Of a stretch of DNA of 64,000 bases, positions 1,250 to 62,200 are shown piece by piece. Source of the stretch: Mustelus asterias (Eukaryota); NCBI RefSeq assembly GCF_964213995.1, contig NC_135801.1, positions 11,222,001-11,286,000 of the forward strand, written 5' to 3'. Numbering within the stretch: the stretch's first letter is position 1; every line of letters begins with the position of its first letter. The notes beneath the pieces are model-generated. The model was not told where the DNA came from. It was given only the letters and a program-made list of their open reading frames with translations, and did no database searches. The position numbers and the translations under genes were made by a program.

Positions 1250-4200
1250 GTAACATGTTATTACTTACTAAATGAATCTTTCATCACCGTATCTATTGCT
1301 GGACGGTCTGATTAAAATGTTTGTCCATTCTCTTCAGATGGTGCAATCTATTCCTGGGGACAGAATAGTTATGGGCAACTAGGACTTGGTGAAGGCGTTT
1401 ACAGCCAGCTACAACCCAAACGTGTGATATCTCTGACTGGGATCCCAGTGGCTCAGATCGCTGCAGGAGGGAGGCACAGCTTTGCCCTTTCTTTCTCAGG
1501 GGCAGTGTTCAGTTGGGGGAAAAACAGCCACGGACAGCTGGGGCTCAAGGACACAGAGGGTAAGGACACATCGGAGTACATTTCTCTCTTGAAACAATCT
1601 GGATGCCTGTAAAGATACGAGCAGGACCAATGGGATTGGGCTTCCTGTCTGTGGAGACTATGAATCTTAGTCACGCAGAGAGAATACAGTTCATGGAAAC
1701 CCTGAAGGTTTTTTTCTATATATTCTTTCATGGGATGTGAGATTTGTTGCCCATCACTAATTGCCCTTTGAGGGCAGTTAAGAGTCAACCACATTGATAT
1801 GAGGCCAGACCAGGTAAGATTTCCTTTCCTAAAGGGCCAGATGGGCTTTTGCAACAATTTAAACTAGTTTATGGTCCCTAATATAACTTTCTTTCCAGAT
1901 TTTCTTAATAATTAATTGGATTTAAATTCTACCAGCTGCAATGGTGGGATTTGAACCTGTGCCCCCAGAGCATTAGACTGGGTCACTAACCATTTTTTTA
2001 TTCGATCATGGGTCGTGGGTGCCGTTGGCTGGCCAGCATCTAAAGCCCATTCCCAGTTGCCCTTGAGAAGATGGTGGTGAGCCACCTTCTTGAATCGCTG
2101 ATACAACTGAGTGCTTGCTCGGCCATTTCAGAGAGCAATTGAGTCAACCACACGGCTGTGGCTCTGGCGTCCTACATAGGGCAGATCTGGTAAGGACGGC
2201 AGATTTCCTTCCCTAAAGGATATTAGGGAACCAGGTGGGTTTTTCTGACAGTGATATTGCCAATATTCAGTGATAGTGCCATCACACCACTATCCCCCCT
2301 GATCCTGGACCGAGATAACCACAGTGGATTGCTCCTATGTAGTTCCTGGACAGGGCAGGATCCCTGGTAAGTTAATTTTATTTTTATTAATCTTCCATCT
2401 AATATCACCTTCATAATTTGATGCAAAACCATCTTCTCCAGTTATAGTTCATTACTGCACACTTCACAGCGTGGTGAAGGAACTATTCACTACATGCACC
2501 AGTTAAGTGGCAATTTATTTGTTTCAGAAGTGAGGAAGATCACAAGTAATAATTAGCTGGTTTCCTGCCCTCCTCATTATCCAAGCAAATTGTGACCATC
2601 ACATTTAAAAAATAATTAGCACACAAAAGGAAAATATAGGCCTTCAACTTCATCTCCTTACTTCCCTTCTTATAGAATCATAGAATCCTACCGTGCAGAA
2701 GGAGGCCATTCAGCCCATCGAGTCTGCACTGACCACAATCCCACCCAGACCCTATCACCATAACGCCATGCATTTACCCTAGCTAGTCCCCCTGACACTA
2801 AGGGGCAATTTAGCATGGCCAATCCACCTAACCCGCCCATCTTTGGACTGTTGGTTTGGTGGAGAATGTGGTACCAGTATTGGGTAGAGGGCCAAGGTTT
2901 TCCCACATTCTGATGGTAAAAACGTGACATGTCGCGTAGGAACCTCCATTATTAAAACAGGTTGTTCTCTCAATAGATAAAGCCAGTCCATGTCGTGTGC
3001 ATCAAATGAAGAGGCTCAATGTCACATACATCTCTTGTGGAAACCAACATACTGCTGTACTAACAAAGGTATTCTTTCTTAGACTTATTGGGGCTTTCTC
3101 CATAGTGGCTGCAACTTTGGTATTAGGAAGTAAAGTGAAGAATGCCAATTTATTTTTGGAGATAAATTTTAAAAAAGGGCTGTTGGGGCAGTTGTTGATG
3201 TGTCAAAAAAGTGCTCCAATGGAATCACAGAATCCCTACAGTGCAGAAGAAGGCCATTCAGCCCATCGACTCTGCACCGACTCTCTGACAGAGTTTCTTA
3301 CCCAGGCCCTCTTCTCCACCTTTTCCTCGTAACCTCACACATTCACCATGGCTATTCCACCTCACCTACACATCTTGAGGCACTAAGAGGCAATTTGTTT
3401 TTACCATGGCATCTCCATCTAACCTGCACATCTTTGGACAGTAAGGGGCAATTTATCATGGCCAATCCACCTAACCCGCACATCTTTGGAGTGTGGGAGG
3501 AAACCTGAGCACCCGGAGGAAACCCACACAGACACGGGGGAATGTGCAAACTCCACACAGACAGTGACCCAAGGCTGGAATTGAACCTGGGTCCTTGGCA
3601 TTGTGAGGCAGCAGTGCTAACCACTGTGCCACCGTGCCACCCATAGTTTTCATCTGATTCTTTCATGGGATTGTCACTGACGAGGTCACTTGTTGCCCAT
3701 CTCGAATTGCCCTTTGTACTGAGTGGCTGGTGAGACCATTTCAGAGGGTAGTTAAGAACAGCCACATTACCATTTATCTGGGGTCACATGTAGGTCAGAA
3801 AATGTGAGGGCAGCAGATTTCCTTCTCTAAAGGATATTAGTGAAGCAGATAGGTTTTTAATAGCAATTGATAATAGTTGCTACGGTCACTATTACTAAGA
3901 CTAGCTTTATTTCCCAGGTCGATTAATTGAATTTAAATTCCATTAACTACCACGGTGGGATTTGAACCTAGGTCCCAGAGCCTAAGCTGCTGGATTACAA
4001 AGCCTGACATTATCATAATGCCAATACTTTCGGGAGTCCGGTGTTGGCATCAATTGTATGGAAGGGGAAAGTGTTACGCAGTGAAAGGAAAGGTTAAATG
4101 GCCACAGCAAAACTTTTTATCTGAAGGGACACATGGGTCGCTTCCATGTCCTTGTGGGTATGGAGCCAGGGGCAATGGTTGGGGAGGCTGGTTGCTTCTT

Positions 4201-16200: not shown

Positions 16201-19200
16201 GCTCTTTCCCCATAGACCAACAATTATTTTTTCTTTTTCACGTCTATATCCAATTCCCTTTTCACAGTCACTATTGAATCCGTTTGCATTGTCCTTTCAG
16301 GTAACACGTCCCAGATCATAACAACTGGGTGTGCAGCCTTCTGCTTGTGATTCCCCATGTGGTGAGTTCACTGGCGTAGTGGTCATGTCACTGGACTAGC
16401 AACCCAGAGGCCCAGACTATGTGCTGGGGGCATGGCTTCAAATCCTTTTAAATTCAAATTATAAAGTCTGGAGTTGAAAGTGAGCCTCGGTAATGGGGAT
16501 CATGAAACTCTCATCGGTTGTGGTAGAAACCCAGAGAATCATAGAATCCCTACAGTGCAGAAGGAGACCATTCAGCCCATCAAGTCTGCACCGACCACAA
16601 TCCCACCCAGCCCCTATCCCCGTAGCCCCACATATTTACCCCACCCTGTGGGCGGCACGGTGGCACAGTGGTTAGCACTGCTGCCTCACAGCGCCAGGGA
16701 CCCGGGTTCGATTCCCGGCTCGGGTCACTGTCTGAGCGGAGTTTGCACATTCTCCCCATGTCTGTGTGGGTTTCCTCCAGGTGCTCCGGTTTCCTCCCAC
16801 AGTCTGAAAGACGTGCTGGCTAGGTGCATTGGCCATGCTAAATTCTCCCTCAGTGTACCCGAACAGGCGTCGGAGTGTGGTGACTAGGGGATTTTCACAG
16901 TAAATGTAAATCTACTTGTGACTAATAAATAAACTTAAATCAGTTCCCCCTGATACTAAGTGGCAATTTAGCATGGCCAATCAACCTAACCCGCACATCT
17001 TTGCACTGTGGGAGGAAACCGGAGCACCCGGAGGAAACCCACGCAGATACGGGGAGAACGTGCAAACTCCACACAGACAGTGACCCAAGCCGGGAATCAA
17101 ACCCAGGTCCCTGGGCATCTGGTTCTTATATGCCCTTTCAAGGAGGATCTCTGCCATCCTTACCCGGTCTGGCCTACATGTGACTCCAGACCCACAACAA
17201 TGTGATTGGCAAGCAACTGGGCAATTAGGGATGGGCCACAAATGCTCACCTTGCCAGTGACGCCAACATCCATGAAAGAATTTTAAAAACTTATTTTGGT
17301 GTTACCACCAAAGTTGTTACTTTGCCAATTAGGAATAACATGAAGTTCAATCCAGGATTCTCATGTGCCACACAATAGTCAGCTATTGGGCAGCGGTGGC
17401 ATCTAGATGTCTCAGTCGAGTAATGTGAGTACTCAATGAAGGGATGCAATGTTTTCAAAAATATAGTAATCAAATTAACACATTAGAGAAAGAAAGGACT
17501 TAATGAGAAGTTAATGGATTGGGCCTCCCCTTTGTTGAATTGTTTTAAACAGAAGACAATCTGCGGCACGGTGGCACAGTGGTTAGCACTGCTGCCTCAC
17601 TAGAACCAGGGACCACCGCCTGTGCGGCATTTGCACCTTCTCCCCGTGTCTGCGTGGGTTTCCTCCGGGTGCTCCGGTTTCCTCCCACAGTCTGAAAGAC
17701 GTGCTGGTTAGGTGCATTGGCCATGCTAAATTCTCCCTCGGTGTACCCGAACAGACGCTGGAGTGTGGTGACTAGGGGATTTTCACAGTAACTTCATCGC
17801 AATGTTAAGCCTATTTGTGACACTAATAAATAAACTTAAACTGTTAGAATTAATTTGTAATTTTTTTGTTGAAAAATATCAGTCTTACATGAGGACTACT
17901 CTTACTGACTGTTAACACCTTTTGTCTTTCATATGATAGAGAAATTGGCTTAATCTTTTCCTCCTCATCCTGCCTGACTGGGAGCTTTCTGAGGAAAAGG
18001 TGAGTCGGAGAGAAGCTAAGCAACTGAGTCAATCTGAAATGTAATCGATTTATTATAGTCTGAATTCAATGCATGATAATTACCAGAATTTAAGTACCAC
18101 CACCTTTCATATAACCAGGACCTTCCAGAGTGCTTCACAGCCCGTGAGGTACTTGGAAAGTGTTGGGACGTAGGAAATGCAGCAGCAAATTTGTGCACAG
18201 CAAGATCCAACAAACCTCTCAATATTCCGAACAGCCAGCCCTGCTCTTGTGTCATGTTACTGGATTTTACCCTCCTGAGATTGAAGTCACATGGCCGAAA
18301 AATGACCGCCTCATTTGTTTTAGCGATGGTGCCAGGACATTAGGAGAACTCACTTGCTTTTCTTCAAAATAGCATCGTGGGATATTCTAGGCCCAGCTGA
18401 GGAGTTTCCAATTAACATCATATCCAAATGACAGCACTTCTGTCAGTACAAATCTCCCTCAGCACTGCACTGAAGTGTCAATCCACGTTTTGCGCTGAGG
18501 CTTCCGGAATGGAACTTGAACTCATGATCTCGTAACTCAGGGATGAGGATGGTACAGGCTGTACCATAGCTGACAATGCGATGGAAGTGTGCTTGGAAGG
18601 CTAATTATTGCTAAAACTGAACTGATTTTTTAATAAGGTTTTTACAGGGAACAGTCAATGTTAGCTATTTGTCATGTCCAAACTAAAATGCAGCTCATTG
18701 TAAGAATGGCCCATAGGTTAAAATCAGGTTCACACTTACTGTTATAGGGAAACAGTTGGCCAATAATTAACACAAACATAAGGAATAGAAGCAAGATTAG
18801 ATCATGTGACCCATCAAGCATCCTCTGCCATTCAGTAGGATCATGGCTGATCTTGGATTTCAATTCCACTCTCTTGCTGGTTCCAACAGCCCTTGATTAA
18901 CTGAGAGATCAAAAATTTGTCTATTCCAGCCTTAAGTATATTCAGTGATGGAGCATCTACAGCTCTCTGGCGTAGAGAATTCCACAAATCTACAACCCTT
19001 TGAGTGAAGTCATTCCTCCTCATCTCAATCCGAAATAATTGGCCCTGGGGTGGTACAGTGGCGCAGTGGTTAGCACTGCTGCCTCACAGCGCCAGGGACC
19101 TGGGTTTGATTCCCAATTTGGGTCACTGTCTGCAGAGTCTGCATGTTCTCCGCGTGTTTGCGTGGGTTTCTTCCGGGTACTCCGGTTTCGTCCCACAGTC

Positions 19201-40200: not shown

Positions 40201-43200
40201 GGAAGGAGTTTCTCCTTATTTATTCTGTCAGAATCTTTCAGGGCTTTGAACACCTCTGTCAAATCTCACCTTAACTTTCTCTACTCTAACAGAATAAGCC
40301 TAGTTTTTTCAGTCTCTCCAAGTAACTGAAGGCTTTTATTCTTGGTACCATTCTAGTAAATCACCTCTGTATCATCTCTAAGGCCTTCCTGCCTAAAGTG
40401 TGGTGCCAAAATTGCCCACAATATTCCAGCTGATCCCTGTTTTGTGAAGGTTTGACAGAATGTTTCCGTTTTCCTATTCTTGGCTTCTCTTTACAAAGCC
40501 AAGGACCCGCATATTGATCTAACAACCTTCTCAATTTGTCCTGCCAGTTTCAAAGTCTTGCGCACTTCCGAAAGACGTGCTGGTTAGGTGGATTGGCCAT
40601 GCTAAATTCTCCCTCAGTGTACCCGAACAGGCACCGGAGTGTGGCAACTAGGGGATTCTCACAGTAACTTCATTGCGGTGTGAATGTAAGCCTACTTGTG
40701 TCACAATAATAAATAAACTTTAAAACTTGCACCCTCAAGATTTTCTGATCCTGTGCCCCTTTGGAATTTAGCAGCAAATCTTGCAATGATTTTTACAACC
40801 GCTGGATCTCTATGCATTTTACAGTCAATGAAGTACTTTTGAAAAAGTAGTCACAGTTGTTACGTACAAAATGACCTTTAGTTTATCTTGCCTCTCCTGA
40901 TTCTTCCAATGCCAAGGAATCTTGGTGTTGTCAGAGTCAATCACTGTTAGCTGAAGAACAATGATTTACGCTCAAGGCTCGGAAGAAATTGTAACTAATT
41001 ATTTTTGATGTAGGTTTGCTGGGATGAACAGGATGTCGAGCTCATTCCAAATGGCAGGAATCAGTTGCTGACTAACAAGAACAAGTAAGTTATAATTAAA
41101 CAATGGAGCTACGGTGAAGCCTCCATTCAGATGTTTTAGATCCATTCCTTTGTCTTTCCATCTCACACACCTCTCTTCCCCACTTCCAAAAAAGAGCCTC
41201 GCCTGTTCTTTTTTTCAATCTCAGCCTGAAAGCTATAAGCCCCAGTTTCTCAGAAGAAAGAAAAATCACATGTTTTACCTTCTGCAGATGTGATCTCCTG
41301 GTGTCAATTTGAATGCAGGAAGTGGTGTAGAACAGTGGTGGTGTCCCTGATGCTGGATCAGAAACTCTAGGTTCAAATCCCACACCGAGGGGGGTGATAA
41401 TATCCATACTAATAATCATGAAGAGGAATAATAGCTGTATTAATAACCGTGTCCAGTGGAAGGGTTAGAAGAGGCAAACTGAGTAGCAAAGGTTTAACTG
41501 CAAGGATGAGCATATCAGGACACCAAACTGTAAACTGTGAGTTTTAGATGGAAAGACAAAGGAAGACTGTCCCAATGACAGATGTGACCTTCAGATAAAT
41601 GTAGGGAGGAGGGCTCTATAGTGTGGGATTGTTTGTGTCTCAGGCTGGGAGAGGCCATTAAACCAGACATTTGGACATGGGAGGATTGATTGCGATCTAA
41701 AAACTCAGACGCAAGCTGGGAGGTCAAAAGATAGTGTGAACAATAGCCTCCTAATTCAATTAAGCCTCACACTGATTGGATATTATAATTAAGTAGACGT
41801 GCAATGATTGTGATTGGTTTTAATATCTATCTTACGCATGATGTAACCTTAATCAATAGTTGTGAATGGATAGAGATAACGCCGATACCTTGATTGGTAT
41901 ATGGTAATTACTTGTAATCAAATTTGAAACTATATCTGCTTGTGCATTCCTGAATTCTTGTACTCCGGCTTAGTTACAGACTGTGACCTGTGACTTTCCA
42001 GAATCCTCACTATAGCTTGCATTAAAACAGCTGTTTTAGAGAACTCTGACTTGGTCTGGTTACTTGAAGGGAAAAAAGTTGTGATCGATTAAAAGGCTGA
42101 ACATCAAAGCCCATAACACATACAATGTTTTGTTGGGTACAGAAGGAGTCTACACGATGTAGTTTGATGAGTTGATACAGCATGGGAACCCTTCCCACCA
42201 TCCACCAAAGAGGATAAATGTGTGTGTGTGTGAAGATGCGCTTTAAATTAACATGAACTCTGAGGGCAGTTTCTTCTCTTGGCTCTGGTATTTTCTTTGT
42301 TCTTTTGTCTCTCTCAGAAGGTTGTGTGGCTGATCGGGGTTAGGTAGTATCTAGTTATGATGGTGCACACATCAGGAGGCAGGTTTGATGGAGCTGCTGG
42401 TCTCTACTGCCCAATACTTGTAATGTTGCACACATCTTCTCTACCAGGTTTTGAGTGGCTTCTACCCAGCCAGGGCTGAAATTCCAGCCTACTCCATGCT
42501 TCCCTGAATGCTTGCCCTCCAGCCCTGGCCAATGTTCGGTTCATGGTCGCATGCACGACCTACAGCAGAGTTGCACTTAGATAAGGCCTGTTTTGGGTTG
42601 GCCTTCCATGTCAGCAGAGCCACACCACCAATGTACTGCCCATTATTAGCAGAGGTCAAAGGTCGCCTAAGCTCCATAGTAACATTATCATCGAACTCCT
42701 TTGGCATCTGGCTGTTCTCATCTGGTTATATTTTAATATTGCTTTCTTCTTACAATCAAAGGGAGGAATACGTGAGGGCCTATGTGAATTATGTTTTCAC
42801 TGCGTCAGTCAAGGAACCCTTCAATGAGTTTCGAAGAGGATTCTACAAGGTTTGCGACAAGGAACTACTGAAGTTCTTCCAACCTCAAGAACTGATGGAC
42901 ATATTGATTGGAAATGACGACTATGACTGGAAAGTTCTGGAACAGGTTTGCAAGCCATTTACATTGTGTGCAGATATGGCGCCACCGAGTATCTAACTCT
43001 CTGGGAGGGGGTCATTATACTAATAAAAGGTAATATAGTGGGCAACTTGCATATAGCAAGAATAAACTGGCCTGGGAAAGATGCTCTGTTGGAGAGTCAG
43101 TGCAGACTCGATGGGCCAAATGGCCTCCTCCTGCACTGGCGGAATTCTATGAATAAACTTGCTCAGCATTAATGTGAGCATTTGGGTACCCGAAATACAA

Positions 43201-59200: not shown

Positions 59201-62200
59201 TCAGAGAAGGAAATCTGTTGTCCTTACCTGGTCTGACCTACATGGGACTCCAAAGCCACAGCAATGTGGTTGACTCTCAATTGTTCTCGGGCAACTAGGA
59301 ATGGGCAATGAATGCTGACCAGCCAGTGACACCCATGTCCCACGAATGAATTTAAAAAAATCAACAGATCTACATATTTGTTTAAAATGGATTCAAATTT
59401 TCAAATTGCCCTGTTGGGATTTGAACTCACAGTTGGAAAAGGAGCTTGATATTACTCGGCTGTCAGAAAGAGATAATCAAGAACAATGTCCATCCATCAA
59501 TCTCTTCTGTTCTGCCCGAGGGCAGGTGTTAACTCAAGCCCTGCACACATGACTTTTGAGCCATCTACGCAGGAGTTTACCATCCTGAGGCCCAAAGAAC
59601 GTACCTGTTCCTGGAATCCAGGGTGTTCAGCGCTGGGGACTGATTGCAGTTCCACTCCTGTCCAGTAACGTTTCTGGTGATGCAGAGACTAGAGAGCTGT
59701 CACCCAAGCAGATTGGCTGGGAGCTCGCTTCTGGTGGGACTTCCTCCTGAGCGAGTGGTGGAAATTCCACTTGAAGCCAGTTAAGGCTTGTTGGAGCGTG
59801 AAATCGCTGCGGGACAAACACTGTTGTCGGGGAACTGGATGCGGGAAGGGAAAGCCCACCAAACTAAAAATCCTGACCCACATACTAGTCTCTACTTAGC
59901 GGGGCTGTCCAGAGTGGTACACACACACTTCACCTTCTGATTCAAAGCTGTGTGTATCACTGAGCGGAATAGTGTATATTGAAGTATATGTACTGCAAGA
60001 GAAATGGTTTGTTGGCCATTTATGACTTAATATTTAATACCCTGAACATTATCCATATCCAATACAGTATAGACATTGACCTAAAGTCGAAACCAGTTTT
60101 TGTATTTCTCAGTCTCATTGTAAGAGTTAAACATAATCATTTCAAACCTGAAGTAATTTTTTTCTCAAATGTCTTTTGCTGAAAGATGGTGAAATCTTTG
60201 CCTGGGGACAGAACACTTACGGCCAGCTCGGTCTTGGTACACAGGAAGCCTCCCAGAGCGTCCCTCAGAGTGTGATATCTCTCACTGGGATGCCAGTGGC
60301 TCAGATCACTGCAGGAGGGGAACACAGCTTCGCCCTGTCTCTCTCAGGTGCCGTCTTCGGTTGGGGAAGGAACAATCACGGGCAGCTGGGGCTTAAGGAC
60401 ACAGAAGGTAAGAAAGTTTCCAAGAACTATTGCCCTTCCTTACCCTTTATGCTGCTTCCATTAACAAAGCCTGGCATCCTGTCCAAAAGGAGAGAATAAT
60501 TTAACGATCGGATTTGCAGTCAGTGGCATTATATCTGAAATAGCCAGGTGGTGAAGGATAGCACCAGAGTCAAATCATTACACTCATCGTAGCTTTTATT
60601 TACAGAGATACATTTTAAAAATGTGCACTTCCAAACACAAGCAGCACAGTGGCACAGTGGTTAGCACTTCTGCTTCAAAGTGCCAGAGGCTGGGGTTCGA
60701 TTCACAGCTTGGGTCACCGCCTGTGCGGTGTCTGCATGTTCTCCCCGTCTCTGCGTGGGTTTCCTCCGGGTGCTCCAGATTCCACCCACAGTCCAAAAGA
60801 CGTGCTGGTTAGGCACATTGGCTGTGCTACATTCTCCCTCAGTGTACCCGAACAGGCGCCGGAGTGTGGCGACTGGGGGATTTTCACAGTAACTTCATTG
60901 CAGTGTTAATATAAGTCTACTTGTGACACTAATACTTAAACACACAGTTCCAGTCCGTTCGTATATGTAGGGTCTATCAGCATCTATAGAGAGAGAAACT
61001 GAGTTAACGTTTCGAGTCCAATATAACTCCTCTTCAGGACATTTCAGACCACTCCGATGTGACAGCTGTGAGATTCAATGTGTTGAGATATCACTCCTCA
61101 ATACTGTGTACCATTGAGGTTCAAGGTTACATACTGGGTAAATAATGTGGTGCCCATCAATACATGCAGTTGGATCAAATGTGTAATCGTCACCCGATAC
61201 AGTGTGACCGGGTTTCACTCCTCAGGCTGCAGTTATCTGTACAAGCGTTTTTTCTGGGTTCAGCAGCTGGCCAAAAGATTGGGACAGAAAATCCTCAATC
61301 TTGCTCACTGTTCTGTATTGAGAAAGCCAGATGTGGACCAGTTGAATGTTTTGTTTTAACATTTACATAACACCGATATGTCTGATTCTGAACTCTCAAT
61401 GGTTTGTCAGTTTAATTTCTGTGGTCTTTCTCAATCTGGGTGCTCATTGTTAGACTTCCTACATTTCTTCAACCAAGCCCACACAAACTGCAGAAAATAT
61501 TGCATCTTCTTGCTCTTCTGAGTCTTTGCTTTGAACTTTTCCTTCAGAATAATTGGATTTCATTTGTCCTCGACTCACATGTTTATATTCAGTTTTAAAG
61601 TCCCGTGCGCACCAGACATTCATCGTCACAGCGCTTTTTTACTCAACCCATTCCGAAATAGACTCATAACACAGAATGGTTTACAATAGAATAAATATTA
61701 TCCCCTCACATCACACCCAGGCTGAATGAGTGTTTCTAACACTCCCTGGACTGACGTTTACAACAATATCAAGTGCAATAAAGTCAGAATCATTATACCC
61801 TTAACTCAGTTAATAACGTTTACATGCAATCTTCATGATTAAAAATCTTCTTGTTCTGCACCATACTTTGGAAAAGGGGGAGGAATGTGAGTTGATTTCT
61901 CTTTCCATCCTTCTTACAGATAGATATGAACCCAACCACGTGAAGCTGTTGGAGTGTAAGAAGACCATCCATATCTCTTGTGGGGAAGAGCACACTGCTG
62001 TCCTGACAAAGGTTTGTTCAGGAAGAATTTGTCATTAGAATCTCAATCATTCCTTATTGGGATGGGAGATAGCCGCCATTGTAATTACAACCACTGCTTT
62101 TTACCCTTGGTGCAGCCCACCTAGGGCATAGCCTGATTAAAAACTGTGAGGTAAGTGGCAAGGTGGCACAGTGGTTAGCACTGCTGCCTCACAGCGCCAG

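Follow-up and report, generated by a model that had tools for sequence, protein, structure and literature searches.

A family of dispersed MHC class II beta fragments sharing one 3′ end point in a shark genome

The usual view of stringent LINEs is that they reverse-transcribe only those RNAs bearing their own tail. Several described systems leave short copies close to those analysed here, which are pieces of MHC class II beta sequence scattered through a shark genome. Tailless retropseudogenes (Noll et al. 2015, PMC5322556) are likewise RNA-derived and devoid of poly(A), have a defined internal 3′ end beside a single-stranded A-rich stretch, and show complementarity between the target and the RNA end. 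In the accessible parts of that study, the published cases have TSDs, rely on a relaxed L1, come from therians and the anole, and derive mostly from small RNAs, whereas the shark fragments stem from a protein-coding immune mRNA, have no TSD and accompany short target deletions (11 nt and ~18 nt). Class 2 templated insertions and break repair with reverse-transcribed products, as outlined in PMC5110952 and PMC4516963, resemble the shark fragments in drawing on a brief stretch from the interior of a distant gene, which some copies carry in spliced form, and in showing microhomology with neither TSD nor tail; their donors come from across the genome, whereas the shark fragments come from one mRNA and have one end point. 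The shark fragments thus resemble class 2 insertions in target deletion and microhomology, but their donor is not a random choice.

The tails shared by stringent CR1/L2 LINEs and SINEs, as described in the portions of PMC4176376 and PMC3747384 available, look modestly like the exon-3 site, with a loop-like motif and a stem that closes at GC(T), followed by AAATG and the 3′ end, and insertions of L2 type may show target truncation and microhomology (PMC2666801, in part), as the shark fragments do. The shark tail-like site differs from CR1/L2 tails in lying within a coding exon, in its unrelated wider stem and in its supposed chance origin. U6/L1-type chimeric retrocopies (PMC11838501, in the sections available) have a fixed RNA 3′ end located 5′ of a same-sense retro-element, as do three of eight shark copies; however, the shark fragments show no TSD, five of the eight stand alone, and the partners are of HE1/CR1 type, not L1. 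Searches of the open-access literature turned up neither dispersed class II beta fragments in sharks nor an mRNA that mimics the tail of a stringent LINE, and the accessible parts of two papers on shark class II genes (PMC8010645, PMC9992475) do not mention such fragments.

The window, meaning the whole stretch of 64,000 nucleotides that was analysed, contains one of these fragments inside a SINE. The features at and near the site are listed below.

17940–17999, plus strand: candidate 60-nt exon of a putative RCC1+HECT (HERC-like) host gene, with AG before it, GT after it and open frames
18120–18211, minus strand: 3′ part of the host SINE, to its decayed tail (outer limit approximate)
18212–18215, plus strand: 5′ junction overlap AAAC, common to the SINE and donor-type sequence
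18216–18300, plus strand: 85 nt captured from exon 3 of MHC class II beta, of the TSQYS donor type
18301–18304, plus strand: 3′ junction overlap AATG, common to the SINE and the donor; putative priming site
18305–18560, minus strand: 5′ part of the host SINE (outer limit approximate)

The preliminary description of this DNA had reported 85 nt of foreign sequence in a minus-strand SINE, and this was borne out at 18216–18300. Together with its overlaps, the insert occupies 18212–18304 (plus strand), 93 nt that correspond to exon-3 nt 28–120, and it is antisense to the host SINE, which lies on the minus strand. The host SINE, presumably DeuSINE/SacSINE1-like, is a member of a repeat family that occurs at scattered sites and has kept its tail conserved (a 34-nt pattern matched 212 times); copies of the family stop a few nt past AAATGCAAG (30 loci). 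When 20 SINE copies were aligned, approximately 16 had a spacer of ~11 nt (majority AGCAATGTGAT) at the insert position, three did not reach that position, and none of the 20 carried the 85 nt. Because the other copies show this spacer and none shows the 85 nt, the insert does not belong to the SINE family, and it replaced 11 nt of the host copy; it is thus foreign to the SINE rather than part of its consensus. The two junction overlaps proposed earlier fared differently: AATG was found as described, but CAAAC was not, since the donor-type sequence reads ...AAAAC and the overlap is reduced to the 4 nt AAAC. Poly(A) is absent at the insert, no splice-site exon ends flank it in the sequence, and a scripted search of fragment ends detected no TSD above chance level, all in agreement with the earlier account. 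The site is also probably intronic, as had been stated, being located between an RCC1-like exon (2940–3329, plus strand; E 4e-4, slightly below the Pfam cut-off) and a HECT exon (42700–42993, plus strand) of the putative host gene. The RCC1 and HECT exons at window positions 2940–43000 and 60152–60496 (plus strand) suggest two tandem HERC-like genes.

The insert is free of stops in the frame 18217–18303, and the 29-residue peptide encoded there matches the C1-set domain with E 1.5e-8 and 35.3 bits (cut-off 21), which upholds the translation first proposed. A search of solved structures also identified the peptide as a C1-set domain, at a resolution that leaves class II beta and beta-2-microglobulin undistinguished. 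Searching the genome with its own insert gave ten matches, comprising the window, three exons on contig G000:C8 and six dispersed pieces. All three exons on G000:C8 lie between AG and GT; the reading frame is intact in two of them and shifted in the third. Over 81 nt, the insert matches the genuine, AG/GT-flanked exon of one of these genes, gene A, at 93% identity (E 2.7e-25). This gene has leader, beta-1, beta-2 and TM exons, with exons 1–4 forming a single open frame; exon 2 matches PF00969 (class II beta domain; E 8e-5), and the beta-2 domain is 100% identical to a houndshark protein labelled class II beta chain-like at NCBI. In a protein search, in which 150 of 519 candidates were scored, the three beta-2 exons were the only ones that had both more than 70% identity and the downstream half. 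The donor of the insert is the beta-2 exon of MHC class II beta, as the preliminary description had held. The insert reads TSQYS at a position where the three beta genes have TMPHS, TLSHS and TSSHS; the exact TSQYS donor allele was not among the three beta genes found in the assembly, and the nearest forms, TSQHS and TSQRS, were seen in proteins of other sharks (2 of the 29 listed).

Further observations were made on the MHC contig. The third class II beta locus (L005, G000:C8:34778005-34778276) has a 10-nt deletion in exon 3 and a frameshift, and no match for this locus was obtained with the exon 2 query. At the start of intron 1 of gene A, there are 44-nt tandem units (L025–L026, G000:C8:34675075-34675420), each of which repeats the end of exon 1 together with the GTAAG splice donor. 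Exon 3 of a class II alpha gene (L088, G000:C8:34565027-34565308) is followed by GGTTAG, a splice donor that looks weaker than the GGTGAG of its paralogue L089. Extensive tandem arrays made up of nearly identical C1-set exons are found on G000:C8 at 21.6–24.7 Mb and 50.1–51.1 Mb.

The genome contains at least ten dispersed class II beta fragments, including the window piece. With the 5′ half of exon 3 as query, 11 matches were obtained, representing three genes and eight dispersed pieces, whereas the 3′ half gave four matches, representing three genes and one fragment. One further fragment was present among five matches to exon 2. The exon 4 query gave no fragment among three matches, at a sensitivity that missed the diverged exon-4 part of fragment L014. 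The counts are lower bounds from queries with exons 2, 3 and 4, and they exclude class I exons, which cross-match to the same C1-set end. No further copy was retrieved with the longest fragment, L003, as query. One of 11 pattern matches (L078) was dropped as a chance match in repeat DNA.

The 3′ ends of eight fragments are located at exon-3 nt 120, 120, 120, 124, 125, 125, ~130 and ~132 (on the strictest reading, the end of L009 is at 118), and the AATG overlap at 18301–18304 is the exact end of three of them. Their 5′ starts vary from −110 to +63 relative to exon 3. This clustering of 3′ ends was reached in none of 200,000 random placements in which the lengths and the query overlap were kept. 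All eight fragments covering the region of nt 120–132 stop there; the remaining two of the ten, L014 and L043, end elsewhere. We considered whether the shared ends are an artefact of C1-set conservation, with similarity stopping at KNG, and rejected this because five of the eight right flanks are repeats and none of the eight continues as a C1-set frame. Two control exons gave no fragments: both matches to class II alpha exon 3 and the single match to beta-2-microglobulin exon 2 were genes. These controls are two exons only, both from immune genes, and were named from a reading of their translations.

Splice junctions are crossed by three of the ten fragments, namely, L003 and L006 (exon 2–3) and L014 (exon 3–4). 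The intron between exons 2 and 3 is 13.4 kb in gene A and 2.8 kb in gene B. Because L003, L006 and L014 join exons without the intron, the template was spliced RNA. The cDNA origin raised in the preliminary description is therefore supported at the level of the family; the window piece itself lies within one exon, and its sister fragments point to an RNA origin for it as well. The 3′ flanks of the copies are unrelated and their 5′ ends differ; the window piece, L003 and L004 are of the TSQYS donor type, and L006, L008 and L024 are of other types. Since the flanks are unrelated and the donor types differ, the fragments represent separate events. The scripted search of fragment ends detected no TSD above the null for any of the ten. 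L009 replaced ~18 nt of a CR1-type element, with overlaps, and thus has the same anatomy as the window insert, as judged from one empty copy. The elements adjoined in the same sense by three of the eight fragments are ones that we take to be HE1 and CR1.

Individual fragments have features of their own. L003 (G000:C6:95819992-95820226, minus strand) and L006 (G000:C15:18624295-18624500, minus strand) keep the end of the peptide-binding beta-1 domain, and their exon 2 parts, at 73–77% identity, represent alleles that differ from those of genes A and B. L014 (G000:C26:9607133-9607304, minus strand), the exon 3–4 fragment, has a diverged TM segment, lies within a SINE and ends after TGGAGTG, the same seven letters that are found downstream of the exon-3 hot spot. 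L043 (G000:C25:3381505-3381652, minus strand) consists of exon 2 alone and ends 15 nt past AAATGG. At L010 (G000:C17:57744724-57744786, minus strand), an antisense LINE piece is followed by a 61-nt MHC piece and then by ~640 nt of a 5′-truncated CR1-type LINE with its tail, a three-part junction that a double template jump may have produced.

The window insert was also present in four other species labels, on contigs spanning the site, with a divergence of 5–7%, and its left junction was present in two further labels, giving six in all; several sister fragments are likewise common to other species labels. The preliminary description had advised a search for the empty site in relatives, and none was found in any of the four relatives' contigs compared with the window. 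A 10-nt deletion within the insert was detected in two of these four relatives and gaps totalling 10 in a third, with none listed for the fourth. Because of this deletion in two or three relatives, the insert is not a working exon, and in sequence comparison the window copy appears to be old, unconstrained and inert DNA with no sign of function. The SINE copies differ from the column majority by 11–37% (host SINE, 16–20%), whereas the window insert differs from its sister fragments by ~4–6%, indicating that the insert is younger than the SINE burst.

Two elements predicted or recognized in the window copy bear on the position of the shared end point.

18251–18295, plus strand: predicted RNA hairpin with arms at 18251–18257 and 18289–18295
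18273–18285, plus strand: TCCTGAGATTGAA, a stretch resembling the loop in the 3′ tail of the SINE, in register with AAATG

In the predicted fold, the hairpin arms pair exon-3 nt 67–73 with nt 105–111, and the hairpin closes just 5′ of an unpaired GAAAAAUG. Across 11 sequences, pairing in the 7-bp stem is preserved in 70 of 77 cells, with two double changes, and the stem pair counts are weakly above those of shuffles (reached by 15 and 44 of 500). Relative to shuffles, the hairpin has no excess stability in genes A and B (z −0.4 and −0.3; window copy, −2.5), and part of the loop-like motif is paired in the minimum-energy fold. A TGA in the +1 frame is located at exon-3 nt 112–114, just 5′ of the fragment ends. 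Priming by a tRNA at TGG was provisionally set aside on the basis of tRNA ends.

The likeness of this site to the SINE tail was first spotted by eye, and the statistics given for it are partly post hoc. The motif TCCTGAGATTGAA in its gene A copy has 12 of the 13 letters of the model consensus. With a covariance model based on 18 SINE tails, the best local hit in exon 3 was the loop motif at nt 89–101 (E 0.72 in 282 nt), and the tail AAATG was placed within 1 nt of the AAATG of the exon. When a profile of the loop and all positions behind the stem was used, nt 89 was the top site in both intact genes; the score of gene A was reached by 27 of 2000 shuffles and that of gene B was only 5.6 bits, and L024 had only 3.1 bits in tail-profile scoring. 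A hand-picked version of the profile, made post hoc, gave 27 bits and was reached by none of 2000 shuffles. With the stem arm included (last 38 nt), the exon did not stand out from shuffled sequences (8 of 25 reached its score), and the best end was nt 126. Exon 3 was not found in full-tail searches, and plain alignments of the tail to the exon gave p values of 0.05–0.28. Leaving out the stem arm is defensible because, according to the portions of PMC4176376 available, the stems of zebrafish L2 are exchangeable and the loops are not. When element ends were used as mimic models, one of ten tail families landed in the hot spot and the nine others did not. Taken as sequence likeness, the resemblance between the exon-3 site and the DeuSINE-type tail appears modest (p about 0.01, partly post hoc). 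No autonomous LINE with a SINE-like tail was found among 83 tails in ~1 Mb (overlaps included) of the 3.7-Gb genome; a CR1-4_DR-like partner is given for the dogfish DeuSINE in the available part of PMC3747384. A second old repeat family (L171:8780, L174:9547, L086:7346, L100:952) has the stem of the SINE tail and the AAATGCAAG end, but differs in its loop (about GGGAC-TTTTACTACGTT) and finishes in a GTT repeat.

The reading that we prefer, at a probability of roughly 0.4, is that the eight tail-less copies arose from a LINE reverse transcriptase that repeatedly primed inside spliced mRNA and was drawn there by the likeness to a DeuSINE-type tail. The parts of this reading differ in strength: internal priming at the nt 120–132 site by an enzyme of any kind is probable, whereas recruitment by tail mimicry is tentative. 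The reading is weakened by the younger age of the insert relative to the SINE burst, by the failure to find an autonomous partner among the 83 tails and by the two of ten fragments with other ends. In its wider form, the reading would hold that the class II beta coding exon accidentally mimics the tail of a stringent CR1/L2-type LINE, and that in the shark germline the mRNA has acted, at low copy number, as an ‘accidental SINE’ whose fossils record lost alleles; this we regard as a shade more doubtful still.

The preferred priming mechanism would require class II beta mRNA in the germline or early embryo. Such access is plausible because class II beta transcripts are reported from bulk tissue in catshark ovary, testis and embryo datasets, as described in the sections of PMC9992475 available. 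A non-LTR reverse transcriptase, presumably of CR1/L2 type, would load onto the spliced mRNA, and a nicked or broken target end would anneal to AAUG or GAGU behind the hairpin. Copying would then run for 60–240 nt toward the 5′ end of the mRNA, producing 5′ truncation, and the 5′ side would be joined by microhomology with the loss of few target bases. Insertions of ZfL2-2 include target truncation and microhomologies (PMC2666801, in the part available), so both break repair and LINE integration could account for this anatomy.

The strongest alternative, although an unlikely one, is ordinary tailless retroposition, in which a break end or the enzyme of any retro-element primes behind the hairpin, at the A-rich single-stranded stretch, and the likeness to the SINE tail is due to chance. 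This would agree with fragment ends that come after the unpaired GAAAAAUG, with the modest tail-mimic statistics, and with the defined 3′ ends generated at internal single-stranded A-rich sites in the cases set out in the available text of PMC5322556. However, all eight ends sit 1–13 nt beyond the A run and none lies in it, and ten class II beta fragments against none for the two control exons are left unexplained. TSDs were detected in none of the ten fragments, whereas the cases in that part of PMC5322556 were selected by TSD and are tied to L1.

Less probable again is the use of ready-cut RNA, in which class II beta mRNA was cleaved or stopped near nt 120–132 and its free 3′ end was primed, template-jumped or ligated, as in U6/L1 chimeras. 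This would suit the same-sense neighbours of three fragments: the 5′ start of an HE1-type SINE comes immediately after L006, a 3′ piece of HE1 after L004, and the 5′-truncated CR1-type LINE after L010. These abutting fragments count against tail mimicry, because a free RNA end is the simpler explanation for them. The +1-frame TGA at nt 112–114 would also suit decay cleavage, the activity of SMG6, in frameshifted alleles; however, L003 is in the normal frame for ~240 nt up to its end. Recurrent same-sense chimeras are known for L1 (PMC11838501, in part), but the putative shark chimeras have no framing TSD in the scripted search of fragment ends, insertion into or beside existing repeats is common in this genome, and truncated templates are absent from the cases of PMC5322556 itself, as far as its accessible text goes.

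Independent random patching of double-strand breaks with MHC cDNA or genomic DNA is very improbable. The deletion, the two overlaps and the absence of TSD and tail do fit class 2 templated insertions (PMC5110952, in the part available), the capture of spliced mRNA is known (PMC4516963, likewise), and L014 and L043, which end elsewhere, may be such events; nevertheless, random patching is strongly disfavoured by the one 3′ end of all eight copies covering the region, and the control exons gave no copies. The earlier proposal of a break patched from a distant immune gene or its cDNA thus stands with respect to the donor and to the anatomy of deletion and overlap, but not as a single chance patch, given that eight of ten fragments have one 3′ end and the controls have no fragments. 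The weakest reading is one early capture, or a single truncated pseudogene, that was then copied around the genome: the TSQYS donor type common to the window piece, L003 and L004 and the age of all copies, which are present in relatives, would agree with it, but it is opposed by the unrelated 3′ flanks, the differing 5′ ends and the other donor types of L006, L008 and L024, and no such locus was among the genome matches.

The interest of these fragments lies in a family of eight with one end point that is specific to one immune mRNA. A host mRNA captured repeatedly from one internal site would show template choice by stringent LINE enzymes, or by break repair, outside mammals, and the exon-3 site provides a defined 60-nt substrate. 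The copies are a potential source of error in MHC PCR or annotation. Their existence implies that class II beta mRNA gained access to the germline or early embryo, and they retain beta-1/beta-2 sequence from class II alleles that the present genes lack, so that they could serve to date MHC turnover and as presence/absence markers in sharks.
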